The notes below the pieces were generated by a model. The model had not been told where the DNA came from and ran no database searches. It worked only from the letters and a program-made list of their open reading frames with translations. The position numbers and the translations under genes were made by a program. From IMG/VR virus record IMGVR_UViG_3300016371_000006: a DNA stretch of 64,000 nt; one strand, given 5' to 3'. The DNA comes from an uncultured virus (IMG/VR IMGVR_UViG_3300016371_000006). Taxonomy: Duplodnaviria; Heunggongvirae; Uroviricota; Caudoviricetes. This document shows, piece after piece, positions 988 through 63,237 of this stretch. Every line of letters starts with the position of its first letter. Position 1 is the first letter of the stretch.

Positions 988-1686
988 TTAGCTGCCGAGT
1001 AGCTTGAACAGCGCCAGCTCATGCGGGGCCTTGATCACCCCGGCCGGCGCGGGTGGTTCATGGAACACCGCGAGCTTGGGGCCCAGGTTAAACGGCTCGG
1101 CCTCCAGGTCCACGGCCCGCTCGAAGTAGCCCTTCCAGGCGTGGTCGTACCCGTCGGGGTCCCACTCGAAGTTGTTGTCCGCACCCGGGTAGGTGGTGGT
1201 CAGCAGATATGAGCTCTCGGACAGCTTGAACTTGACGAGCACGAGCTCGACCAGCTCGTTGACCGGCAGGTGCTGCAGGAAGTGCCGACACAAGATCAGG
1301 TCGTAGCGTTTGATCTTCTGGACGGTGAGCAGGTTCTCCGGCGAGAATCCGATGGCGATGCGCGTCGGGTCGCCGGTGTAGTCGCCCGTCATCATCCGCT
1401 GGATGCAGATGTTGATGCGGCCCTGATCGACGTCCCAGCCGGTGTAGCTGATGTCGTTCAAATCGACCAGCCGCATCCAGTTCCAGTCGCCGCACGCGGC
1501 GTCCAGCACACGGCGAATATCGTACTTGCGGAAGATGGTGGGCAGCCACTGCCGCAGTTCCTCGGTGGAAGCCACCGTGGCCAGCGGGCCGTCGGCGGTT
1601 TCGGGCCGCTGCTCGAACAGCCGGGAATCCTCCCACAGCCCGCGCACCTCGCTCCAGGCGTTGGCCTGCTCCTCGACAAATCCCAT
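988..1686 (-). CDS. Class I SAM-dependent methyltransferase
   Basis: VLDAACGDWNWM motif I, YTGWDVD, DLILCRHFLQHL; RBS GGAGG upstream; paralog of 62122-63237. Confidence 0.8.
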   Translation of the reverse strand: MGFVEEQANAWSEVRGLWEDSRLFEQRPETADGPLATVASTEELRQWLPTIFRKYDIRRVLDAACGDWNWMRLVDLNDISYTGWDVDQGRINICIQRMMTGDYTGDPTRIAIGFSPENLLTVQKIKRYDLILCRHFLQHLPVNELVELVLVKFKLSESSYLLTTTYPGADNNFEWDPDGYDHAWKGYFERAVDLEAEPFNLGPKLAVFHEPPAPAGVIKAPHELALFKLLGS

Positions 1687-12373: not shown

Positions 12374-13129
12374 ATGCCAAGCAAGCCTCCCCCACCTAAG
12401 ACCATCACCCTGCCCGTCACCGAGATCGGTCAGGTCCAGTTCGGCATCTTGGGCATAAGTCCTTATATCCACAGCCGCATGTCAGAGAAGGCCAAGCACG
12501 AACTGCTGTTCCCCAAGGGCCGGCCCAACCAGGCCGAGAAGGCCGCCCGCCTCAAGCACGAGCCCGTCGAGGAGTTCCGGGCCTCCCCCTACACCCTCAA
12601 GGACGAGGACGCCCCGACCTACCTGGCGACCAAGGGCGACATGTTCAAGGCCACCATGCGCACCGCTGCCAAGGACCTGCCCGGCGTCAACGGCGAACAG
12701 ATCGGGCGCCTGGTCTGGGTGGAAGGGATGTACCTGCCGCTGTGGGGTAACGCGAAGCTGCACATGGCCGTCGTGCGCAGCGCCAACCAGCAGAAGACCC
12801 CCGACATCCGCACCCGCGCGATCAGCGAAAAATGGGCCACCGTCATCACGGTGCGTTTCGTCAAGCCGCTGATGAACGAAAAGATCGTCACCAACCTGCT
12901 GTCCACCGGCGGGCAGTCCGCCGGTGTCGGCGACTGGCGCACGGAAAAGGGCAAAGGCACCTTCGGTCAATTCATTCTGATTAACACAGATGAACTTATG
13001 GCACATGAAGTGATGAAAATGGACCGCGCCGTGCAAATCCAAGCAATGGAAGCCGCACAAGCTTTCGATGATGAAACTCAAGAAATGCTCACCTGGTTCG
13101 ACGCCGAACGTGAGGAGCGTGGCCGATGA
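12374..13129 (+). CDS. RAMP/Cas7-like RNA-binding protein, putative effector of the GGY-NN array
   Basis: N-terminal strand QFGILGISPYIH, helix FKATMRTAA, beta-hairpin DIRTRAISEKWATVITVRF, C-terminal Gly-rich loop GGQSAGVGDWRTEKGKGTFGQF. ATG follows GAAAGG. No cas1/cas2 or CRISPR in the window. Confidence 0.7.
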   Translation: MPSKPPPPKTITLPVTEIGQVQFGILGISPYIHSRMSEKAKHELLFPKGRPNQAEKAARLKHEPVEEFRASPYTLKDEDAPTYLATKGDMFKATMRTAAKDLPGVNGEQIGRLVWVEGMYLPLWGNAKLHMAVVRSANQQKTPDIRTRAISEKWATVITVRFVKPLMNEKIVTNLLSTGGQSAGVGDWRTEKGKGTFGQFILINTDELMAHEVMKMDRAVQIQAMEAAQAFDDETQEMLTWFDAEREERGR

Positions 13130-13848
13130 CCAGACCCGCGCTGGTGACAATGCCGGTCAGCAAGCTCATCGAAGACCTGTCGATCTACCCGCGAAGAATT
13201 GTCAACCAGAACCATGTCCGCGACCTGACATCAGCGTTGCAAGCAGCCGAAGGCGCAGATATATTCCCGCCGCTGACCGTGGACCGGCGCTCGAAGCGTA
13301 TTGTCGACGGCTTTCATCGGCGACGAGCTTTCCTAGCGGTACTCGGGCCGGACGCGGAAATTCAAGCCGAACTACGGACCTACCATTCCGAGACGGAACT
13401 GCTTCTCGACGCAGTACGACTCAACTGCGTTCACGGGCTGAATCTTTACGAGATCGAAAAGCGCAGGATTGTTCTGAAGCTGAGCGACCTCGGCGTCGAC
13501 GACGACGAGATCGCCGGCGCGCTGCATGTTCCGCCGGTCCGGGTGCAGCAGATCAAAGTCCGTGTAGCGACGGTCGTCGACGGGGATGGGGCGGTGCTAA
13601 GGCTGGAACCGCTGAAACGACCGCTGTTTCATTTCCAGGGCCGCACGATGAGCGAGGCCCAGGCCGCAGCGGGAACGTCATCACCAGGCGGCTCGTATAT
13701 GCAAACAATCAGAGCTCTGCAAGATGGGCTGCGGTATCGGTTACTGCCAACCGACGGACGCATCGACGCCGCTCTGCGGACGTTGGCCGCCCTGCTTGAT
13801 AACTACTTGGAAGGGGATGAGGAGGAAGGTATTGCCGCGTCGGTGTAA
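13126..13848 (+). CDS. ParB/Srx N-terminal-domain protein, accessory to the RAMP-like gene
   Basis: LIEDLSIYPR, FPPLTVD...IVDGFHRRRA, LNCVHGLNL followed by an HTH; ATGA overlap with the upstream gene. Confidence 0.8.
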   Translation: MTRPALVTMPVSKLIEDLSIYPRRIVNQNHVRDLTSALQAAEGADIFPPLTVDRRSKRIVDGFHRRRAFLAVLGPDAEIQAELRTYHSETELLLDAVRLNCVHGLNLYEIEKRRIVLKLSDLGVDDDEIAGALHVPPVRVQQIKVRVATVVDGDGAVLRLEPLKRPLFHFQGRTMSEAQAAAGTSSPGGSYMQTIRALQDGLRYRLLPTDGRIDAALRTLAALLDNYLEGDEEEGIAASV

Positions 13849-13865
13849 CAGACGCGGACGGCAAT

Positions 13866-15656
13866 GGTGCGGTTCGGTCAGATGGCGTAAGGCAGTTGCG
13901 GTCCGGTGGGGCACGGCTCGGTTAGGCATGGACAGTTACGGAATGGCCGGGTCAGTTCTGGTGAGGCGAGTTGCGGTCTGGTAAGGCGGGATCGGGTCTG
14001 GTCTGGTACGGCTGTTGAGGACGGTACGGCAAGGCATGGTGGGGTCGGGCGTGTTGCGGCGTGGTCGGGCGAGTTGCGGTCTGGCATGGCACGGTCGGGA
14101 ATGGTGGGGGTTAGGTGCGGCTGTTGAGGTGACGTCTGGTGCGGCGTGTCTAGGTGAGTTCGGGCAAGGTCGGGCGAGGTCTGGCGAGGTGCGGTCGGGT
14201 GCGGCCGTTGGGGTTGGGCATGGTGTGGTGAGGTGTGGCGCGGCGTGTTGCGTGAGACACGGTGCGGCAAGGCCCGGTGTGGAGGGTCAGGCAGGATAGG
14301 GCGGGGTTCGGTGCGGCCGTTGGGGAATGGTCCGGTTTGGTCGGGTTTGGTGCGGTCTGGAACGGCGAGTTCAGGCAAGGTTCGGTGCGGCTGTTGAGGC
14401 GAGTTCCGGCGCGGTTAGGCCTGGCGAGGTTTGGCCTGGCGAGGTATGGCCCGGTCGGGTGCGGCTGTTGGGGTTAGGTCGGGTTACGTGAGGTCTGGAG
14501 AGTTGAGGCATGGCGCGGTGCGGCATGGCATGGGATGGAGAGGTTAGGTCCGGTCGGGCGCGATAAGTTGCGGTGAGATGAGGCTGTTGTGGTGGGGTTG
14601 GGTTTGGCGAGTTACGGCCTGGTAAGGCGTGGTCGGGTCCGGTTGGGTCTGGTGAGGCCGTTGCGGTTAGTTCGGGTTTGGTGGGGTCCGGTCGGGTGTG
14701 GCGTGGCAAGGTCTGGCGAGGTCTGGAAGGCGAGTTGTGGTGAGGTGCGGCCGTTGCGGTCTGGTGGGGTGAGGCATGGCGGGGTCGGGAACGGCACGGC
14801 GTGGTTAGGCGAGTCTAGGTCTGGTGCGGTGAGGCTGTTGAGGCATGGTCCGGTCGGGTGAGGCGAGGTTAGGTGGGTTTGGGTCCGGTCTGGTGTGGCG
14901 TGGCTTGGCTAGGTTTGGCGCGGTGAGGCTGGGTGAGGTGCGGTTCGGCTGTTGCGGTGTGGCATGTTGAGGACGGGTACGGCAGGGCATGGTGGGGCCG
15001 GGCACGTCAAGGAGTGGATAGGTGGGCTCTGGCATGGCGAGGCGAGTTGCGGTGCGGCAGTTTTGGCATGTTAAGGCGTGGCACGGTGGGGACGGGTCAG
15101 GTGTGGAGGGCTAGGCAAGGTTGGGTGAGGTGCGGCTGTTGTGGTCTGGCACGTTGCGGTGTGGCCCGGCGTGGTCGGGCAAGGTCCGGTAAGGCACGGC
15201 AGGTACGGCGGGGTATGGTCCGGTGCGGTCGGCACGGTTGGGTCGGGTTAGTTTGGGCGCGGCAGGGTGTGGCGGGGCAAGGTGGGGTCCGGTAAGGTGC
15301 GGCAGCTAAGGTCCGGTTGGGTTCGGTCGGGTTGGGCGGGGAGAGGTACGGCAAGATCCGGTGCGGCCCGGCGAGGTTTGGCGGGTTCCGGTGAGGTGCG
15401 GCTGCTGCGGTAAGGCATGGTGAGGTTCGGCAAGGCGAGGTCGGGTGAGGTCTGGTCGGGTGCGGTGAGGCATGGTCGGGTAAGGTGCGGCAGCTGCGGT
15501 CTGGCGCGTTCAGGAGAGGTCGGGTTAGGTCGGGTGGGGTCTGTTGGGGCATGTTCCGGCTAGGCGTGGCAAGGTGCGGCAGTTGAGGCGCGGTCTGGTG
15601 AGGTCCGGTTTGGTTAGTTGGGGCTCGGTGGGGCACGGCACGGCGGGGTGAGGTAC
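13866..15656 (+). ncRNA. Array of GGY-NN pentamer repeats, 19 segments; putative guide-RNA array
   Basis: 5-nt periodicity (GG[T/C]NN, occasionally GTT/GGA/GAT). 4-nt GGC[TAC] delimiters, usually in the context GGTGC-GGCN-GTTG, at 13891, 14010, 14119, 14203, 14315, 14389, 14463, 14582, 14656, 14749, 14833, 14947, 15056, 15134, 15198, 15301, 15400, 15489 and 15578. 15 of 19 segment lengths are exactly 5n+4. No credible ORF. Confidence 0.85.
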
Positions 15657-15658
15657 GG

Positions 15659-15692
15659 CCTCGGGGCACTGGCGGTTGCTGGTGCCCCGAGG
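15659..15692. terminator. Hairpin closing the array, between convergent transcription units
   Basis: CCTCGGGGCAC...GTGCCCCGAGG perfect 11-bp stem. Confidence 0.7.
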
Positions 15693-15693
15693 A

Positions 15694-16581
15694 TTAAACC
15701 TCGAACGGTAGCGCGGCGTTGAGCAGCCGAGTACGCAAGCTCATGTCGAGATAGGCGCTGCTGATGTCAATCCCGACATAACGTCTGCCGGCGCGCAAAG
15801 CGGCCGCGCCACTGGTGCCCGAACCGCTGAACGGATCTAATGTCACCCCATTGGGTCGGCAGCCGGCCTGGATGCACCGCAGCGGCAATGCGATGGGAAA
15901 GGTGGCGAAGTGCGCTTGCGGGAATTTCTCGACGGGAATACTCCAGCAGTCGCCTGGATTCTTGCCGGCTTCATTGAGGGTGCGCGCCCCGGCGGCGATG
16001 GCGCCGTGCGGATTCCCCCCCGGGGTGTAGGCCCGCCCGGATCTACCGTCGCCCGAGTAGGGTTTGCGCTCGCTGCGCTGGCTGCGGTTTACTGAGATCG
16101 GGCTGTGTGGTGTTCTTATCGCGTCTAGATCGAACCAATACTTCGGTTGTTTGACGAGTAGGAAGACCTGTTCGGAGCGTACGGCCAGCCGGTCGGTTAC
16201 CGATTCAGGCATGGTGTTTTCTTTTAGCCAGGTAATCGAGTTGCGTAAAATCCAGCCGTCATTTTGCAGTGCGAATGCGACGCGCCAGGGTATGCCGAGC
16301 AGGTTTTTCGTTGCGCTGTAGGAATCACCCAGCACAATCCAGCAGGTTCCGTCGCCGGCCAGCACGCGGCGCAGTTCGGCGAACAGGGCCCGCAGGTGTT
16401 CGACGTATTCGGCGGGCGTGTCCTCGAGCCCGTACTGCCCGTCGCTGTCGTAGTCGCGCAGGCCGTAGTAGGGCGGGCTGGTGACAATGCAGTCCACGCT
16501 GTCGCCGGGCAGGGTGCGCGCGACCTCGAGCGCGTCGCCGTGGTGCAGCGTGATCTGGTCGTCGGTGTAGTGGACGCTCAT
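15694..16581 (-). CDS. N4-C/N6-A DNA methyltransferase (beta class)
   Basis: TSPPY (motif IV) at the N-terminus, HFATFP, LDPFSGSGTSG (motif I) at the C-terminus. Confidence 0.9.
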   Translation of the reverse strand: MSVHYTDDQITLHHGDALEVARTLPGDSVDCIVTSPPYYGLRDYDSDGQYGLEDTPAEYVEHLRALFAELRRVLAGDGTCWIVLGDSYSATKNLLGIPWRVAFALQNDGWILRNSITWLKENTMPESVTDRLAVRSEQVFLLVKQPKYWFDLDAIRTPHSPISVNRSQRSERKPYSGDGRSGRAYTPGGNPHGAIAAGARTLNEAGKNPGDCWSIPVEKFPQAHFATFPIALPLRCIQAGCRPNGVTLDPFSGSGTSGAAALRAGRRYVGIDISSAYLDMSLRTRLLNAALPFEV

Positions 16582-17240
16582 ATACCGGCCATCAACTCCC
16601 AGTAGTTGAACTTGGTGCCGAGCGCGTCGACGATCGTCACCGTCTGTTCGGCGTCGAGGTTCAGGCATCGGCTGGCGTAGATGCGGGCGTATTTGGGGAT
16701 GCGGATTTCGTTTCGGACGAACGCGCATCCGCGGCCGGTGAGCCGCCACCAGCCGACCCGCGAGCTACCGTCCTCGCGTTCGCCGGGCATCTGTTCGATC
16801 AGGCCCCAGTACCGTGCAATGCACATCTCCCCGCTGCGTGAGACGTGGATGGGTTCACGCCCGGTGGAGTCGATGTAGGGCAGGTAGACCCAATCGTCGC
16901 CGGCCTTGCGGTACATCGCGATCAGCACGCGGGCGATGCCGGCGTTAATCTTGCGCCGATACACCTTGGCGAACTGGCCGCACAACGGACAGGTGACGCC
17001 GTCGTCGACGTTATCGCGCAGCCACGCCTGCGCCTCCCGTAGTGTGGTGTCGGGTCGGAGGTTGAACATGGTGAACGTGATCGGGTCGATCAACTCCTCA
17101 ACCCAGTCGTCGTCCTCTTTGTCGTCGTCGGGCTGATCGAACAGATCGCCCTGGCCGTCATCGCGCGGCGCCCAGGAGTAGCACCTACACGACGGGCAGT
17201 AGCCGACGTGCGGTTCGTGCGGGCATTGCGGACATGTCAC
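16578..17240 (-). CDS. Hypothetical protein
   Basis: CPLCGQFAKVYRR...ARYWGLIE; operon overlap. Confidence 0.65.
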   Translation of the reverse strand: MTCPQCPHEPHVGYCPSCRCYSWAPRDDGQGDLFDQPDDDKEDDDWVEELIDPITFTMFNLRPDTTLREAQAWLRDNVDDGVTCPLCGQFAKVYRRKINAGIARVLIAMYRKAGDDWVYLPYIDSTGREPIHVSRSGEMCIARYWGLIEQMPGEREDGSSRVGWWRLTGRGCAFVRNEIRIPKYARIYASRCLNLDAEQTVTIVDALGTKFNYWELMAGI

Positions 17241-18518: not shown

Positions 18519-18951
18519 TTACTGCGTGGGGCCGACAGGCTTCGCCCAATCGCCATTCGTGTCGTGTCGGCGCCGGCCGTTGCGGATGCTGTCCCAGGTA
18601 TTCGCGCTGCGGGTATCCCACCGCAAGTTGCCGATGCAATTATTGAGCCGGACATCATCGTGGTGGCATGCTTCCATCCCGGTTGGGCATGGCCCGAACC
18701 ACGCCTCCAGAACAACGATGTGAAGATCGACGGTGCGCTTCATTCCCGGCTGCCGTAAGCCGATCTTCAGATAGCCGCTCCGTTTGTCGATCCACGGCGC
18801 TATCGGCTTGCCCCGTAGCCGTCGCGGGTTTGCACCGCCCCACCTGTTCGCGGTAACGACGATCCGATCGACGGACCGGACGCGGCCATCACTGCTTACT
18901 TCGTAGTAGCCCTCGAAGCCGAGGACCTCGCGCCATTCAACTGAGATCATC
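18519..18951 (-). CDS. NUMOD4 + HNH homing endonuclease
   Basis: EWREVLGFEGYYEVSSDGRVRSVDR...ACHHDD...NLRWDTRSAN; start uncertain. Confidence 0.85.
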
Positions 18952-19148
18952 AGCGGAACATTCGGGACAAAGCAGTTCAGGGAAGGTGTCGTCGATCCAG
19001 CGCAGCCACCACCCGTCCACCGTGGCCACCCGCTGACGGGCCTCGTCGGCCTCGGCGAAGGTGTGGTACTCCGTGTCAGGCTCAGCGCGCACCCGGCAGC
19101 GGTCACACATGATCGTGTACCGGGCGGTGATGTCGATGCCGCCGGCCA

Positions 19149-19559
19149 TCATCTGCCGAGCCGTGATTGCAGCAGCGCCAGTCCCCCAACAGGCTCCCAT
19201 CGAAGATTCGCTAATTTGTTGTTGGCCGGGTCGTCGTCGATGTTACGGGCGTCGTAGCCGGGCGGCTGCGCGCGGCCGGTGAACGCTTCGAGCACCAGGC
19301 GCTTCACCGGGAACTGGATGTAGTCGTTCTCGATCCACAGGTTGACCGCGCGGGTGCCGTCGTTGGGCCGCACGCGCGGGGAGAGAATCCTGCCCTTCAC
19401 GGTGCGGATGCACGGCACGCCGTCGCGGCCGGTGCGCCCGGCGACCTGGCGGGTGACCGATCGGATGCGGCCCATATCGGAGGCTTGGTAGGCGGCCGAG
19501 AAGCGCGGATCAAGAACCGGGCGCCACTGCTCGACGACCATCTCAACCTGCCCGATCAA
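19149..19559 (-). CDS. NUMOD4/HNH-like protein (degenerate HNH)
   Basis: YQASDMGRIRS...RLVLEAF...NIDDDPANNKLANLRW. Confidence 0.75.
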   Translation of the reverse strand: MIGQVEMVVEQWRPVLDPRFSAAYQASDMGRIRSVTRQVAGRTGRDGVPCIRTVKGRILSPRVRPNDGTRAVNLWIENDYIQFPVKRLVLEAFTGRAQPPGYDARNIDDDPANNKLANLRWEPVGGLALLQSRLGR

Positions 19560-20076
19560 GGTCGTTATGAGTGAACAGCTCGTTTCGCTTGGCGGTCACT
19601 GCGGCATCAGCAGCGGCCAGCGAAGCGAAACGGCCGACCCAATACTTCCGACCGTGGTGTCTTACCTCTGCCCGCCAGCAGTTTCTGTGACTGTCCCAGA
19701 TGACGCCGCGCATCCCCGACGTGTTGTTGGCATTAAGTCCGGCGCGGTTCTCCTGGTTCTGTTTATTGCTGACGCGACGTAGATGCTGAGGATTCACGCA
19801 GACAAGGTTGTGACAGCGGTGGTCGATCTGGACGCCTTTGATCGGTCCGACACAGAGCTCATACGAAAGTCGATGCGCGAACACGCCTCGATGATTGCCA
19901 ATCGTCAGCTGGCCGTAGCCTGTGCGCTTTGAGATCCCACCAGTCCATATCCAGCACCTGGTGCCGAGCTGCGGGTGAACGGGTCCTTTCTTGTCAACCT
20001 TGGCCCAGAACCATTCGCCGATATCAGCATCGAGCGGGAGGTATCGCCCATGTCCGTCGCGGCGCCGCTCCATCAC
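19543..20076 (-). CDS. HNH endonuclease with AP2-like domain
   Basis: CWIWTG, AHRLSY, DHRCHNLVCVNPQHL, SGMRGV. Confidence 0.85.
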   Translation of the reverse strand: MMERRRDGHGRYLPLDADIGEWFWAKVDKKGPVHPQLGTRCWIWTGGISKRTGYGQLTIGNHRGVFAHRLSYELCVGPIKGVQIDHRCHNLVCVNPQHLRRVSNKQNQENRAGLNANNTSGMRGVIWDSHRNCWRAEVRHHGRKYWVGRFASLAAADAAVTAKRNELFTHNDLDRAG

Positions 20077-20189: not shown

Positions 20190-20327
20190 AGGCGCGAGCC
20201 GGACGGAACCGTCGGTTATCTAAATTGGTAATTCAGGTTCGAGTCCTGATCACGGTCCTCCTCGGAAGCCGTGATTACAGAGCGCCGGCTTCGGCCGGTA
20301 CCCGGCGTCCAATCTTCGTTCGCGCCT
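20190..20327 (+). ncRNA. Y RNA-like gene 1 (tRNA-like T arm; YrlA-like)
   Basis: 5' GGCGCGAGCCGGA pairs with 3' TTCGTTCGCGCC; T arm TCAGG-TTCGAGT-CCTGA; upstream of Ro60. Confidence 0.75.
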
Positions 20328-20336
20328 CTAGCTTTC

Positions 20337-20490
20337 GGCTCCGAGCCGGACGCTGGATCGGTTATCTTTCTGCAAAAGTGAGAGCGCGGGTTCGAATCCC
20401 GCCACGGCTGCTGGGGCAGTCGTGTGGACGAGTGGCCTAAGTCGCATGGGCGTAAGCCCTTTCCGATCTGCAACCCCTTCGTTCGGAGTC
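20337..20490 (+). ncRNA. Y RNA-like gene 2 (YrlA-like tRNA mimic)
   Basis: CTCCGAGCCGGA...TTCGTTCGGAG stem; T arm GCGGG-TTCGAAT-CCCGC, closed acceptor-like stem, D-arm-like GGACGAGTGGCCTAAGTC. Confidence 0.8.
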
Positions 20491-20499
20491 TTCACGTCC

Positions 20500-20660
20500 G
20501 GTCTGAGCCGGATGAGATTCGGTTATCTGTCGCCAGGTCGAGCGGACCCAAAACGCTAGGAGGACAGGTGACACGTACCTCCGGTCGGCACCCACATCAG
20601 TCACGGGTTCCGGCTGCCGGGCAACCGGTGTCAGCCGGATTTCGTTTCTTCGTTCAGACC
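20500..20660 (+). ncRNA. Y RNA-like gene 3
   Basis: GGTCTGAGCCGGA...TTCGTTCAGACC stem with the shared TCGGTTATCT motif. Confidence 0.7.
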
Positions 20661-20669
20661 ACCCGCGTC

Positions 20670-20739
20670 GGCACGAGCCGGATGTGGCCGGTTACCTAAC
20701 CTTTCCTGTTAACCCGGTCGCGGTTGCTTCGTTCGTGCT
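20670..20739 (+). ncRNA. Y RNA-like gene 4 (short)
   Basis: GCACGAGCCGGA...CGGTTACCT...TTCGTTCGTGC. Confidence 0.65.
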
Positions 20740-20750
20740 TTAAAACTGCT

Positions 20751-20822
20751 GGGGCGAGCCGGATTTCGAGTCGGTTACCTTGTGGGAAAGTATCCCCGGT
20801 TCGAGACTTTTTCGTTCGCCCC
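20751..20822 (+). ncRNA. Y RNA-like gene 5 (short)
   Basis: GGGGCGAGCCGGA...TCGGTTACCT...TTCGTTCGCCCC. Confidence 0.65.
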
Positions 20823-20843
20823 GCCTAAGAAAAGGAGGAACAC

Positions 20844-22544
20844 ATGGTTGATGTTTTGAAGGGCTTCTCCACCCGGGCGACTCCGCAGAGCCAGCCCGCC
20901 GGCGCCGCGACGGTGCGCAACGCCGCCGGCGGCCATGTGTTCGCGATCGACGACATGGCCCGGCTGCGCCGATTCCTGACGATCGGGACCTCCGGCGGCA
21001 CGTACTACACCAGCGCGCCGGAGCTCACGCGCGAGAACGCCGAAGTCGTGCTGCGGTTGGCGCAGAGCAATCCCTTCGCCCTGGTCGATGAGATCGTCGC
21101 GATCTCCACCGCGGGGCGCGCGCCCAAGGCCAACCCGGCGATCTTCGCGCTGGCGATCGCCGCGGCCGAGGGCGCCAACGACCCCGAGCGGGGATCGGGC
21201 CGTAAGTATGCGCTGTCGAAGTTGCCCGCGGTGTGTCGCACCGGGACGCATATGTACCTGTTCGCCGGGTACGTCGAGCAGTTCCGCGGCTGGGGTCGCG
21301 GCCTGAAGCGCGCCGTCGGCGAGTGGTACAACGGCCGGTCGGTCGACAAGTTGGCCTACCAGATCCTCAAGTACCGCCAGCGCGAGGGCTGGCGGCACGC
21401 CGACCTGCTGGCGCTCTCCCATCCCGCGCCGGACACCGCGATGCGAGACAACCTCTACCGCTATATCACCGACACCATGACCGGGCGCGACCCCGAGCAC
21501 GTCGAGCGGATGGCGCCCCACCGCGAGCACTACCAGGTCTTCCCGGCTGACAAGATTCCGGCGCTGCCTGATCTGATCGGTGCCTACGAGCAGGTGCAGA
21601 ACGCCACCGCACTGCAGGCGGTCAACCTGATCGCCGAGCACGACCTGTCCTGGGAGATGCTGCCCGACAAGCTGCTGGGCGAGGCGCTGGTGTGGGAGGC
21701 GCTGATCGGCAAGGGGATGCCGCAGACCGCGCTGATGCGCCAGCTGCCCCGGCTGACCCGGCTGGGCCTGACCACCGGCAAGACCGGCAACCTGATCGCC
21801 GAGCAGTTGCAGGACACGCAGAAGCTCAAGCTGGGCCGAGTGCACCCGATCAACGTGCTGGTCGCGCAGCGCACCTACGCCAGCGGCCGCAGCGCGCGGC
21901 GCGGTGACTCCACCTGGGAGCCGACGCGCAAGATCACCGACGCGCTCGACGCGGCGTTCTACAACGCCTACGGCGCGGTTGAGCCGTCGGGCAAGTCGGT
22001 GCTGCTGGCCTGCGACGTGTCGGGCTCGATGGGCGCCTCGGCCGGGGGCCTGCCGATCACCTGCCGGGAGGTGTGCGCGGCGCTGTCGCTAGTGAGCCTG
22101 AACGTCGAGCGCGATGCCGACATCATCGGGTTCTCCGACGGGCGCAGCCACGGCGGCTACGGGATGTACTCCAACAGCGTGGCCTCGCGGCTGGACATCA
22201 GCGCGCGGCGGCGCCTCGACGACGTGTGCTCCTACATGGCGGGCCTGAACTTCGGGCGCACGGATTGCTCTTTGCCAATGCTATGGGCGATGAAGAACAA
22301 GCTGGACTTCTCAGCAATTCAGGTGTACACGGACAATGAGACTTGGTATGGAAGCGTTCATCCTTGGCAAGCTCTTGACCAGTACCGGAACATGGTTGGT
22401 CACGACGTCAGCCTAGCGGTGATCGCGATGACAGCAACCAGAGGAAGCATCGCAAACCCCGACGATCCTCGCCAGATGGACGTTGCTGGCTTCGACGTTT
22501 CGGTTCCGCAAGTCCTATCCGATTTCGCTGCGTGTCGTATCTGA
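20844..22544 (+). CDS. rsr: Ro60/TROVE-domain RNA-binding protein with vWA domain
   Basis: NAAGG, RLRRFLTIGTSGGTYY, GWGRGLKRAV.EWY, KYRQREGWRH.DLL.LSHP, DVSGSM, TDNETW, MDVAGFD; RBS AGGAGG. Confidence 0.92.
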   Translation: MVDVLKGFSTRATPQSQPAGAATVRNAAGGHVFAIDDMARLRRFLTIGTSGGTYYTSAPELTRENAEVVLRLAQSNPFALVDEIVAISTAGRAPKANPAIFALAIAAAEGANDPERGSGRKYALSKLPAVCRTGTHMYLFAGYVEQFRGWGRGLKRAVGEWYNGRSVDKLAYQILKYRQREGWRHADLLALSHPAPDTAMRDNLYRYITDTMTGRDPEHVERMAPHREHYQVFPADKIPALPDLIGAYEQVQNATALQAVNLIAEHDLSWEMLPDKLLGEALVWEALIGKGMPQTALMRQLPRLTRLGLTTGKTGNLIAEQLQDTQKLKLGRVHPINVLVAQRTYASGRSARRGDSTWEPTRKITDALDAAFYNAYGAVEPSGKSVLLACDVSGSMGASAGGLPITCREVCAALSLVSLNVERDADIIGFSDGRSHGGYGMYSNSVASRLDISARRRLDDVCSYMAGLNFGRTDCSLPMLWAMKNKLDFSAIQVYTDNETWYGSVHPWQALDQYRNMVGHDVSLAVIAMTATRGSIANPDDPRQMDVAGFDVSVPQVLSDFAACRI

Positions 22545-22571
22545 GGCGTGATGAGCGACTATCCTAGAAAC

Positions 22572-22661
22572 GCCGTGGTGTGGTGCGTTATGGCACGGCG
22601 CGGTACGGCGGGACGTGGTTCGGTATGGCGCGTCGAGGTCCGGCAAGGTGAGTTACGGTAA
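22572..22661 (+). ncRNA. Stand-alone GGY-NN guide-like unit (18 pentamers)
   Basis: gccgt ggtgt ggtgc gttat ggcac ggcgc ggtac ggcgg gacgt ggttc ggtat ggcgc gtcga ggtcc ggcaa ggtga gttac ggtaa; preceded by TATCCT (possible -10, 22560-22565) and followed by a hairpin. Confidence 0.8.
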
Positions 22662-22663
22662 CC

Positions 22664-22696
22664 GAGGGCAGGGTCACTTCAGGTGGCCCTGCCTTC
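22664..22696 (+). terminator. Hairpin after the stand-alone guide
   Basis: GAGGGCAGGGTCAC-TTCAG-GTGGCCCTGCCTTC, 14-bp stem with two G-U pairs. Confidence 0.65.
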
Positions 22697-22717
22697 CTTC
22701 TCGGAGTCACATCTGAC

Positions 22718-22936
22718 GTGGATGCGTTGGTCACGATGGCCCGCGAGGCGCACAGGCAAAGCACCGAGCATGTGCGTCTTGCGGGCCATTTCCGCGCGCA
22801 GCGTAACGACGCGATCTGTCGCGCCTACGCCAGCGGGAACTACTCCTACACGACACTCGCGCAGCAGCTAGGGATCAGCCGCGAGCTGGTGGTGAAAATC
22901 ATTCAGGGCCGTCGCCGAGACGGCCCTGTTTCATAG
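22718..22936 (+). CDS. Small HTH protein
   Basis: RNDAICRAYASGNYSYTTLAQQLGISRELVVKII. Confidence 0.65.
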   Translation: MDALVTMAREAHRQSTEHVRLAGHFRAQRNDAICRAYASGNYSYTTLAQQLGISRELVVKIIQGRRRDGPVS

Positions 22937-22953
22937 TGTCCACGCGCGGACAC

Positions 22954-23337
22954 CTACCAGTCCTCGCTCGGCACTCCGGTGTCGGGGACCAGCTCCTCGG
23001 GGCCTTTCATGGAGTTGCAGCCGAAATGCGCTGACGCCCAGTTGTTGCGGTCCATCAGCAGCTCGGGCCGGTCCTTCACCGAGATCATGTGCTCGAGCGA
23101 CCAGGACAACGGGTGTGGGTAGGCCAGGTTGTAGTCGATGGGCTCGCCGTCGATGACGCACGGCGCCCCGATGGACCCATCGGGGTTGCGCTGCACGGCG
23201 CAGCGCGCCCGGTAGGCGTCGCGGCCGGACTTGTACTCCTGGGTGGAGCGGATGGTACGGGTGTTGACCGGGCGCTTGACCCACTTGATCGTGGTGTCGG
23301 TTTCGGGCACGTCGTCGTACAGGTCCTCGTCACTCAC
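22954..23337 (-). CDS. HNH endonuclease (packaging-associated type)
   Basis: CVIDGEPIDY..HPLSWSLEHMIS...PEL..D..N..SAHFGCNSMKG. Confidence 0.75.
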   Translation of the reverse strand: MSDEDLYDDVPETDTTIKWVKRPVNTRTIRSTQEYKSGRDAYRARCAVQRNPDGSIGAPCVIDGEPIDYNLAYPHPLSWSLEHMISVKDRPELLMDRNNWASAHFGCNSMKGPEELVPDTGVPSEDW

Positions 23338-25085: not shown

Positions 25086-25571
25086 ATGACGGATGCTACG
25101 CGCCGCTTCTGGTTCAACGTCGATAAGAACGGGCCTGTCCGCGTGTTGAATCTTGGCCAGTGCTGGATGTGGCTTGGCGGCACGGTTAGCAACGGCCGGG
25201 CGCGTTACGGCATTTTCTATGTCGGCAGCAAGCAGGTCAGGGTACATAGGTTTTCATGGTTCCTTGTTTACGGATCGGTACCCGCGATCCTGGATCACCG
25301 CTGCCGCAATACCCTCTGCGTGCGACCCGATCATTTACGGCCGGCGACAAGGAAAACCAATAATGAGAACCGCGTTGGCGCGAACCGCAATGGCAGATCA
25401 GGTGTGCAGGGCGCGCACTGGGATAAAAGATCAGGGAAGTGGCTAGCTCGTGTGCGTCATAACGGCAGGGATATTCAGGTAGGAGTTTTTAGGACAGCTG
25501 AACAAGCTGGTGAGGCGGCAAGATTGAAGCGACTCGAACTGTTCACATACAACGATGCGGATCGTCCTTAG
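25086..25571 (+). CDS. HNH endonuclease with AP2-like domain
   Basis: RFWFNVDK, CWMWLG, VHRFSW, DHRCRNTLCVRPDHL; lower GC and opposite strand, consistent with an insertion. Confidence 0.85.
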   Translation: MTDATRRFWFNVDKNGPVRVLNLGQCWMWLGGTVSNGRARYGIFYVGSKQVRVHRFSWFLVYGSVPAILDHRCRNTLCVRPDHLRPATRKTNNENRVGANRNGRSGVQGAHWDKRSGKWLARVRHNGRDIQVGVFRTAEQAGEAARLKRLELFTYNDADRP

Positions 25572-53571: not shown

Positions 53572-54060
53572 TCAGGCGTGTTTGTGGGTGCGGTTATAGC
53601 GGTCGCGGGCACGCTCACGGGCCCGGATCAGCTCGCCGTTACGTCGGCGGTACTCACGGTGGTAATCGGTGCGTTGGCTAGTGGCGCCAGCGGTTTGACC
53701 TGTTCCGTTTCTGTGGCGGCCGTGCTGCACCTTGGCTTGTTCGTTGGCGACGGCGGTCTTCCAGCTCAGGTTGTTTAGCGTGTTGTTGATCTTGTTGTCG
53801 TCGGCGTGGCAGCCGTGTATCCGCCCTGGTGGTCGGGGCCCGACCCATGCCTCGAGGATCAGGTCATGGACGTAGCGGAACTTCCCGCCGACGTTAACGC
53901 GCAGGTAGCCCTTCTCGTTGGGAAAGGGTTTCAGGAGCTTGCCTAGGCGTCGTTCCGTGCGGCCGTTGCTTTTCCTGATGGTTCGGTCGATGCTGCGGAT
54001 TCGTCCGTGGTCGCTGGCTTGGTATCCGGGTGCGCCGGGTATACCTTTCCACCGCTCCAT
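53572..54060 (-). CDS. NUMOD4 + HNH endonuclease
   Basis: ERWKGIPG..GYQASDHGRIRSIDR, VHDLILEAW, CHADDNKINN. Confidence 0.85.
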   Translation of the reverse strand: MERWKGIPGAPGYQASDHGRIRSIDRTIRKSNGRTERRLGKLLKPFPNEKGYLRVNVGGKFRYVHDLILEAWVGPRPPGRIHGCHADDNKINNTLNNLSWKTAVANEQAKVQHGRHRNGTGQTAGATSQRTDYHREYRRRNGELIRARERARDRYNRTHKHA

Positions 54061-61606: not shown

Positions 61607-62125
61607 ATGAGTTTCGCGGAAGAATGGCGCGACATCCCTAGTTGCCCCGGCTACCAAGCGTCATCGCTAGGCCGGATACGCAGCCTCGATAGGCAGATCG
61701 ACCGGAAGGATGGACGCCAGAGATTTTCTCGCGGCCGGATATTAAAATTCTCTTTGGCCGACCGGAAGGGGCGACTCTATCCGTTCGTCAACATTCCGCC
61801 GCGTGGCCCGACGAAGGTACATCTGCTGATCCTTGAAGCGTTCGAGGGCCCGCGCCCAGATGAACGCCCCTTCGGCCTGCATCGGGATGACGATCCACTG
61901 AACAACCGGGCCGAGAATCTTTACTGGGGCAATCGACCCGATAACACAAATGACATGGTTGCCAACGGCAGCCACAACAACGCCCGCAAGACGCACTGCA
62001 AGAACGGACATGCCTTCACGCCAGAGAACACCTACGTGGAAGTCATGGCGAATGGGCGTACCCGACGCGACTGTGTCACTTGCGCGAAAGATCGAGCTAG
62101 GCGATCGAGGGAGCGCGCATCATGA
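61607..62125 (+). CDS. NUMOD4 + HNH homing endonuclease
   Basis: EEWRDIP..PGYQASSLGRIRSLDR, VHLLILEAF, HRDDDPLNN, KTHCKNGH. Confidence 0.88.
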   Translation: MSFAEEWRDIPSCPGYQASSLGRIRSLDRQIDRKDGRQRFSRGRILKFSLADRKGRLYPFVNIPPRGPTKVHLLILEAFEGPRPDERPFGLHRDDDPLNNRAENLYWGNRPDNTNDMVANGSHNNARKTHCKNGHAFTPENTYVEVMANGRTRRDCVTCAKDRARRSRERAS

Positions 62126-63237
62126 GCTTTGCCGACGACAATGTCAAAGCATGGAGTGAGATCGTTGAGCTGCATAAATCGCGGCCCGACGAGTTCGGTA
62201 ACACCGAGACTGCCAACGGTCCAGGTGCCACGCTCGCGCAGACCGAGAACCTACGGGAGATCCTGCCCGAGATTTTCAAGCGGTACGGGATCAAGACGGT
62301 GCTGGACGTGGGCTGTGGCGACTGGAACTGGATGAGCAAGGTCGACCTGTCCGGGCTGGATCTCTATATGGGCTGGGATGTCGAGCCAAGCTTCATCGAG
62401 GCCAATACCGACAACTACGGCAACCCCCACATCCAGTTCGCCGCAACCAGCCTGCTCACCTGCGAGGTGATGCCGCCTGTGGACTGCATCCTGGCGCGCC
62501 ACGTCCTGATCCACTTCCCCAACGACGAGATCACCAAGGTGCTCGACAAGATGCGAGCCTGCGGCGCGCGCTACCTGCTGACCAGCCACTGGGAGGACGG
62601 GTCCAACGAGGACTACGAGCCGGAAGGGCTAGCGTGGCGCGGCTACATGGAACGCGCCCTGGACATGGAGGCCCCGCCGTTCAACCTGCCGACCCGGATC
62701 GAGGCGATCCACGAGCCGGCCGCCGACGCCGGCGTGCTGATGGCGCCGCACGAGCTGGCGCTGTTCGAGCTGATCCCGGCGCCGGCGATCGCCGATCTGG
62801 ACGTGGCCGAGTGTGCCCAGTGGGGCGGCTGGAAACCGGTCGACGTGTTCAACGAGCCCGACCCGAACTGCGCGCACGCCTCCACCTATCGGGTGCACCG
62901 CGCCGATGACACCGTCGCCACTGTCTGCGTTGACTGTCAGGGTGAGTTGGACGCCAAAGGTGAAGCGGGAGGGGTGTTCTCGTTTCACGACACCATCGCC
63001 CGCTGGGCCGCCGACGTGGAGAAGGGCGGCCTGGGTAAATCCGACAAGGCGGCGCGGATGCAGGGGCGCCCGATCGGCCGCAACGAGCTGCTGCGCGGCC
63101 TGCGCGACGAACACCGGGAGATCCTGGCGGCCGCCGGAATCGACAACAGCCAGGAGACGATCGGGCGGCTGCTGCGGGTGCACGGCGCCATCCTCGATGC
63201 GGTCCTGAACGAGATGCTGGGTGAGCGTGATGGCTGA
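62122..63237 (+). CDS. Class I SAM-dependent methyltransferase with C-terminal extension
   Basis: VLDVGCGDWNWM, YMGWDV, DCILARHVLIHF; paralog of 988-1686. Confidence 0.8.
   Translation: MSFADDNVKAWSEIVELHKSRPDEFGNTETANGPGATLAQTENLREILPEIFKRYGIKTVLDVGCGDWNWMSKVDLSGLDLYMGWDVEPSFIEANTDNYGNPHIQFAATSLLTCEVMPPVDCILARHVLIHFPNDEITKVLDKMRACGARYLLTSHWEDGSNEDYEPEGLAWRGYMERALDMEAPPFNLPTRIEAIHEPAADAGVLMAPHELALFELIPAPAIADLDVAECAQWGGWKPVDVFNEPDPNCAHASTYRVHRADDTVATVCVDCQGELDAKGEAGGVFSFHDTIARWAADVEKGGLGKSDKAARMQGRPIGRNELLRGLRDEHREILAAAGIDNSQETIGRLLRVHGAILDAVLNEMLGERDG

Follow-up and report, generated by a model that had tools for sequence, protein, structure and literature searches.

The window analysed in this study is a stretch of 64,000 nucleotides from an uncultured virus of the Caudoviricetes. 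It is part of a GC-rich, actinophage-like genome, and soil metagenome runs match it, possibly including its source. Directly behind the ro60 gene of this phage stands a tract of five-base repeats that resembles the guides of an array several kilobases upstream. Which gene this tract addresses, and why it stands where it does, are the questions raised by the locus. Our main reading, to which we assign a probability of about two in three, is that the tract is a detached VIPR guide that would silence the ro60 of sister phages and that is linked to an own allele which has escaped it.

The detached guide and the VIPR locus

A five-base repeat scan of both strands detected a long array at 13.9-15.7 kb, a single strong isolated tract at 22.6 kb and an additional weak match of 7 units at 25.2 kb. 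The isolated vrRNA tract (22572..22661, + strand) was parsed into 18 GGY/NN units, whose dinucleotides are exactly those listed in an earlier sequence-only reading of the locus. Its trimers are GGY in 13 of 18 units, GTY in three, GAC in one and GCC in one, and its score of 23.0 (17 units counted) compares with a maximum of 10.6 across 20 shuffled windows. The tract begins 27 nt after the ro60 stop codon and 6.9 kb from the array end at 15661, in agreement with the earlier estimate of about 7 kb. The terminal hairpin that had also been pointed out was recovered as a stem of 15 bp followed by a pyrimidine run (22664..22696, +; z -3.95). It may act as guide tail and/or terminator; a terminator scan did not call it. 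A stable hairpin also stands 3' of the last array guide.

Of the earlier suggestion that the guide has its own promoter, the possible -10 box TATCCT was found by its sequence at 22560..22565 (+), but a promoter scan of 22400-23000 returned no sigma-70-like site. The guide may instead be transcribed by read-through from ro60. Rfam at gathering score and ARAGORN returned nothing within the 64-kb window. No RNA run was present among the listed sequencing runs matching the genome; one run labelled metatranscriptomic probably consists of DNA. Its coverage takes in some of the Y-RNA-like region described below and not the guide, and it is silent on expression.

Of the 19 array guides, 15 have GC, AC or GA as their last unit but one, and unit 17 of the detached guide fits none of 120 Ro60 proteins. 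Units 17-18 thus resemble the array-guide end motif and fit almost no Ro60, so that units 1-16 are likely to carry the code and units 17-18 are probably an end motif outside it. This restriction was chosen after the mismatches were known, and the counts for both 18 and 16 units are given.

The product of a gene at 12374..13129 (+) was modelled from 116 aligned homologues (pLDDT 88.9), and the top Foldseek matches of the model are Csm3/Cas7-type subunits (best E 2.5e-5). No Pfam family was found for the protein, and pentamer tracts of at least 10 units occur at 61 of 80 viral loci homologous to it. It is a stand-alone RAMP-fold protein outside a CRISPR locus and is predicted to bind guides. Because it has a CRISPR RAMP fold, we assign the locus to the VIPR systems and the protein, by its fold, as a Vipr of no particular type. 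The vipr gene is overlapped by a vap-type accessory gene (13126..13848, +; ParB-N-like with a weak HTH), a family found on 12-25% of top-cluster members, and is followed by a staggered vrRNA array (13861..15661, +) of 27 parsed segments, 19 of them with at least 10 units, which mostly overlap by 1 nt. From sequence and structure model, the array, Vipr, Vap and the detached tract are assigned to a VIPR system of the staggered form named in 10.64898/2026.04.26.720920. Since vipr ends only 9.4 kb upstream of the tract, and a solo guide is defined by having no vipr on its contig or one more than 20 kb away, "detached guide" is the better name.

In four related phages, two of them incomplete, vipr and the array are both absent. 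Ro60 was recorded on 111 contigs and the 12374 protein on 107, with sizes up to 117,852 bases. Two related ORFs at opposite ends of the window (988-1686 and 62122-63237) match the same genes in related phages. Distant Vipr homologues (24-35%), annotated as hypothetical, were also seen in 32 records of phages grown on Mycobacterium and Gordonia (H121-H152), which are possible tractable Vipr models.

Decoding of the guide against ro60 alleles

In VIPR systems, one base of the target, usually the wobble base, is skipped between the dinucleotides that the NN pairs of a guide read. An 80% NN match is the published target cut-off, above which no self hits were found (10.64898/2026.04.26.720920). The same rule and cut-off were applied here. 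The best skip-1 site in the 64 kb lies in the own ro60 (20844..22544, +; 566 aa, TROVE and vWA_Ro60 by domain search), at codons 526-543 (22419..22472, +), where 26/36 nt and 10/18 units match and Ser is written as AGC, the guide having TC. The site, the count and the Ser codons are those of the 18-unit decoding in the sequence-only reading, of which only the last two units probably belong to an end motif and not to the code. The skipped base is the wobble position. The scores with skips 0 and 2 were 20 and 22, close to the mean of 21.9 for the skip-1 null, and skip 1 alone decodes significantly. The self match amounts to 72% over 18 units (26/36) and 78% over 16 (25/32), both below 80%, and the own site is thus a sub-threshold copy of the target. 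A chance match of a GC-rich repeat, for which it could be said that only 10 of 18 units match self, was rejected as a practically negligible explanation: order-shuffled guides reached 26 anywhere in the window in 1 of 1000 cases, and 15 of 16 units fit five related Ro60 proteins.

The question posed earlier, whether any ro60 allele matches better than self, can be answered in the affirmative. Over units 1-16 at the DNA level, 65 of 98 ro60 loci scored above the 25/32 of self, in a set that contains duplicates and of which 22 loci were chosen by guide-like patterns. The ro60 of G004/L114, a complete related phage of 127 kb with tblastn hits for 46 of the 147 window ORFs, matched 29/32 (30/36) versus 25/32 for self, and none of 30 shuffles did as well. 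The protein comparison covered 120 listed of 257 Ro60 proteins found and was made at the amino-acid level, at which the choice of Ser codon is invisible. The 15 closest Ro60 proteins listed fit 12-15 of 16 units (five of them 15) and self fits 11; all 15 relatives exceed self, which is the worst among the 16 subfamily alleles listed. The remaining 104 listed proteins, more distant, fit 8-14 units with a mode of 11. Unit 9 (Val) faces Thr in most listed subfamily members and Val in none, and the closest relative, L001 (82% identical), matches only 27/36.

The top DNA match (33/36) came from five copies of one allele on virus-like contigs of 34-46% GC, one of them with 35%, found through a pattern search and encoding a Ro60 that is 38% identical to that of the window. 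This allele is probably from another host. Since it is distant and of likely foreign host, motif conservation by itself raises the scores of many alleles, and the match is more likely a by-product of this conservation than the target. A perfect or near-full target pattern had no match in viral, metagenome and genome contig collections, the last with 185,579 species genomes. Of 20 guides tested against the four related phages, only two scored distinctly higher than shuffles, a methylase guide (23/28) and the ro60 guide. A search for a second anti-Ro60 guide, as a pentamer tract coding the Ro60 motif, gave no hits, and pentamer tracts were found near ro60 in none of 99 other loci.

Judged by its letters, the guide appears to spell the end of ro60 as related phages do, and not as its own phage does. 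Since it matches related alleles better than self, it is probably a weapon against sister phages, kept beside the own resistant copy. To this extent the earlier proposal is supported, namely that the guide belongs to the 12374 system and acts in trans on a ro60 allele other than its own.

The ro60 tail, the ro60-HTH slot and guide placement

The last 100 codons of the own ro60 (22245..22544, +) have a GC3 of 0.63 compared with 0.94 in the gene body. Among 21 other viral loci measured, such a drop was found only in L001 (0.61) and L003 (0.68), with a smaller one in L154. A recoding of the tail in response to this guide was considered for the low GC3 and rejected, because L001 and L003 share it without having the guide. 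In phylogenetic trees of 18 sequences, the tails of the window and P0122 grouped with P0123/P0129 (97/93), apart from their body neighbour P0124. The disagreement between tail tree and body tree indicates that the ro60 tail was swapped. The closest relatives by ro60 body carry alleles that match the guide.

Of the conserved columns in the footprint, 4 of 15 show a departure of the own Ro60 from the consensus of its subfamily, versus 17 of 353 elsewhere (Fisher p 0.007). In this test, the window was the sole sequence of 18 below p 0.1; the next lowest value was 0.14, and the departures of L003 were not significant (p 0.14). Gly533, kept in 17 of 17 other sequences, is Arg in the window. When conserved columns are defined more strictly, only 2 of the 6 own departures fall inside the footprint, and the DNA differences between window and L001 are not enriched there (4/36 vs 15/164, p 0.75). 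These comparisons give modest support to the view that the own allele has escaped below the match threshold of the guide.

In many relatives a small HTH gene directly follows ro60 and starts within 15 nt of its end. In the window, about 170 nt of non-coding DNA holding the guide separate ro60 from this gene (22718..22936, +). Since the ro60-HTH pair is conserved in many relatives, the guide is an insertion into that pair. Three soil runs, which may be the source of the window, contain contigs of diverged ro60 alleles whose match stops at the ro60 stop, and in one contig ro60 runs into the HTH gene with no guide between them; the footprint letters are not visible in these contigs. In L001 there is a deletion exactly 3' of the ro60 stop, which by our reading of the sequence leaves an HTH remnant. 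Other inserts occupy the junction in several relatives. In L152 the ORF between the ro60 stop and the HTH gene looks, by motif, like a putative RtcB RNA ligase. An ORF of L003 (11695-12222) likewise lies between ro60 and HTH, behind a low-GC3 ro60 tail that has a Pro-to-Met change at a nearly invariant position. For this ORF there is a lead towards an HNH/His-Me-like nuclease (feature score 0.86, TM 0.60, no Pfam nuclease hit); its end is presumably AP2-like, and a pairwise comparison with one HNH of the window found no similarity.

The window itself has free-standing HNH genes at 18519-20076, 25086-25571 and 53572-54060, which belong to the NUMOD4-HNH and HNH-AP2 types (for the last gene, judged from similarity alone), and three of its free-standing HNH genes lie just upstream of the ro60 region. 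Upstream of ro60, a motif scan also found short repeated motifs in five to six copies (20190..20830, +). The region scored far under the family cut-off for YrlA (E 1.5), with a weak tRNA hit (E 1.8), and is probably a Y-RNA-like gene cluster missed by Rfam, as far as these weak hits can suggest.

Two other guides of the window also decode to neighbouring genes. The first long array guide (13895..14014, +) matches, at 13681, the 3' end of the neighbouring vap with 32/48 nt (67%; 0/1000 shuffles) and is probably aimed at rival VIPR accessory genes. The last array guide (15582..15661, +) matches at 15846 (-) an adjacent N6/N4 DNA methylase gene that is convergent on the array (15694..16602, -; domain search), with 22/32 nt (39/1000 window-wide, p<0.007 in the flank), at what we take to be the SAM-binding motif. 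The same guide scored 23/28 against the methylase of a related phage, better than against its own, and an interior array guide (14319-14393) also near-matches the methylase (14/1000). Altogether, the three flank-adjacent guides of the window each decode to the adjoining gene at p<0.007, compared with 0/32 interior and 0/2 opposite-end guides at p<0.02, in a pattern that had been noticed before being tested. As the vap and methylase guides decode to their neighbours too, Ro60 is just one target among others, and the functional link to the Ro60/Y RNA module drawn in the sequence-only reading is unsupported.

An independent IMG/VR sample comprised at least 137 loci, of which 80 with flanks were used. 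Five of 34 stand-alone tracts (L207, L233, L243, L247 and L206, with stops in both registers in L247) matched their own flank at p<0.01, with 69-75% identity and at distances of 16-159 nt (binomial p 2e-5). The controls gave 0/78 for interior guides, 0/34 for stand-alone tracts on foreign flanks and 0/34 for skip 0 or 2; array-end guides matched their own flank in 3/85 cases versus 2/85 for foreign flanks. Among 80 Vipr-family loci at p<0.01, adjacent ends (2/98) equalled opposite ends (2/98) and single-guide clusters gave 0/42. When the guides of 81 Vipr loci were compared with each other's vipr and vap, only the first guide of the window stood out. Neighbour placement is recurrent, not universal. 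In L028 (10623-10702, and the same in L030), the end of vipr is nearly matched (21/32, p 0.013) by a guide that lies 62 nt downstream of that gene. Low GC3, relative to gene start or genome, was also observed in each gene region that adjoins a guide of the window (12900-13848, 15694-16400 and 22245-22544), which suggests that these are exchanged segments.

Proposed mechanism, alternatives and known systems

Starting from the observed anatomy, code, allele ranking, insertion site and recombined tail, we propose that a vrRNA gene became detached from the phage's own VIPR array. Its RNA would start from an own promoter or by read-through from ro60 and would end at the hairpin. Vipr, encoded 9.4 kb away, would coat this RNA so that GGY is hidden and the NN pairs are presented, and these would read the first two positions of the codons in a conserved motif that lies some 70-125 nt upstream of the ro60 stop of a co-infecting or resident sister phage. 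Binding would block transcription, by which the rival ro60 message would be truncated and the downstream HTH gene or inserted cargo silenced. By drift or by a swap, the own copy would have come to lie below the threshold for binding, and the guide would remain linked to this escaped allele because a recombinant with the guide and without the allele would silence itself. The binding and repression steps are taken from the VIPR papers (bioRxiv 10.64898/2026.04.26.720920,.720927), in which repression of transcription acts on either strand (.720920) and pairing advances from the guide 3' end (.720927); expression of the guide, the identity of the rival, the immunity of the own allele and the reason for the adjacency are what we infer. 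A further and more tentative idea is that guide and immune allele form a selfish cassette favoured over the sister allele in mixed infection, comparable to intronless homing yet programmed by RNA, and in competition with homing endonucleases for their slots; the placement may also betray the writing of guides from local sequence.

Among the alternatives, it is rather unlikely that the unit is an acquisition fossil, maybe inert, copied from the phage's own ancestral ro60, a gene that later escaped when its tail was replaced and point changes arose. The adjacency in all three cases of this phage, the guide-matching alleles of the closest relatives by gene body, the deletion exactly after the ro60 stop in L001 and the low-GC3 segment over the site in each adjacent gene would all fit such an origin. 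However, repeat and hairpin are intact and undecayed. Moreover, at positions at which window and L001 agree in AG-Ser, Asn and Asp/Glu, the guide reads TC-Ser, Asp and Asn, and it therefore does not match their common tail ancestor. As the source of the guide, an ancestral and a sister allele are indistinguishable in these data. We consider it improbable that the target is the cargo behind ro60, a rival's homing endonuclease or HTH gene silenced by a roadblock for which Ro60 is merely a conserved address. Other inserts do occupy the junction in several relatives, L003 carries its HNH/His-Me-like ORF there behind a similarly low-GC3 tail, and polar effects were inferred for guides near the vipr end in 10.64898/2026.10.15.759431. 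Yet the nuclease call in L003 is a lead only, and its allele matches 27/36 with footprint departures at p 0.14.

Very little speaks for a low-affinity autoregulation, in which the guide would dampen the own ro60-HTH transcript through the 72-78% site. The best site of the window is indeed in the adjacent own gene and the VIPR papers, in their accessible parts, state no mismatch tolerance, but self is the worst of the 16 listed subfamily alleles, with changes leading away from the guide, and published guides have no self hit at 80% or more (10.64898/2026.04.26.720920). The host ro60, which the sequence-only reading had offered as another target, is scarcely credible as such. Silencing of a chromosomal ro60 (rsr) would let the phage Ro60/Y RNAs take over; the Ro60 motif is conserved in bacteria, and an action of phage Ro60 on the PNPase of the host was proposed in PMC12135203. 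Against this, the listed proteins that do not belong to the phage subfamily have a poorer fit (8-14 of 16 units, with a mode of 11), no exact hit was found in the 185,579 genomes, and no target with three or fewer mismatches occurred in 401 genomes sampled from one actinobacterial class, a search run without a positive control.

If the preferred reading of a detached guide against sister-phage ro60 holds, the range of VIPR targets includes genes for RNA quality control in sister phages. The same reading suggests that competition between phages involves either phage Ro60, which has no proven role in infection, or the gene that follows ro60. The guide code and orphan guides are already published, and new here are Ro60 as a target class and, with partial statistical support, the placement of a guide beside the own escaped target gene, a rule not described in the accessible portions of the VIPR papers. 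With this rule, the targets of orphan guides may be assigned rapidly, and it offers a lead on the origin and spread of guides; the scores of 25/32 and 29/32 provide a natural self/non-self pair for VIPR mismatch tolerance. In the literature searched, neither Ro60 as a VIPR target nor a guide beside its cognate gene was found, and the preprint supplements may hold cases; 10.64898/2026.10.21.760802 mentions VIPR arrays and, in its available portion, not Ro60.

The locus agrees with published VIPR systems in its RAMP-fold protein, accessory gene, GGY/NN guides, wobble 1-nt skip and 1-nt-overlapping array, in targets that would lie in competing phages and in a self match below 80%. It differs in that the guide stands 6.9 kb off the array, inserted behind the gene it decodes to, and in having ro60 as target; the guide has 18 units versus the typical 9-16, and a simple hairpin where SUSP1 has a pseudoknot. 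Orphan guides were already known from 10.64898/2026.10.15.759431, as were a reduced match to self and footprints close to the ends of genes. The solo vrRNAs of SUSP1-family phages and F5 satellites likewise stand away from vipr, match self less than rivals and have a footprint close to the end of a gene, where a polar effect is possible. However, those solos belong to vipr-null elements or lie more than 20 kb from vipr, whereas the phage here has its own Vipr, and they aim at vipr, vrRNAs, satellites and REP decoys, whereas the target here would be an ordinary neighbouring gene. The words "homing" and "allele" are absent from the available part of that text.

Phage Ro60/Y RNA modules are known (PMC12135203, PMC4201824) and resemble this locus in the Y-RNA-like repeats upstream of ro60 and the actinophage-like genome. 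Unlike the 99 other ro60 loci, none of which has a nearby guide, this one carries a guide, with no sign that it is a Ro60 ligand. A parallel in placement is provided by free-standing homing endonucleases, which target neighbouring genes of related phages and co-convert the flanks (PMC2988022). Those of T4 (segF/56, segG/32 and mobE/nrdB) stand between conserved genes, aim at the rival allele of a neighbouring gene and travel with exchanged flanks, as the detached guide would, and a related phage has a nuclease-like ORF (a lead only) in the same ro60-HTH slot. Unlike homing endonucleases, the insert of about 170 nt is non-coding and encodes no nuclease, and aim would be taken by an RNA guide for a silencing protein.
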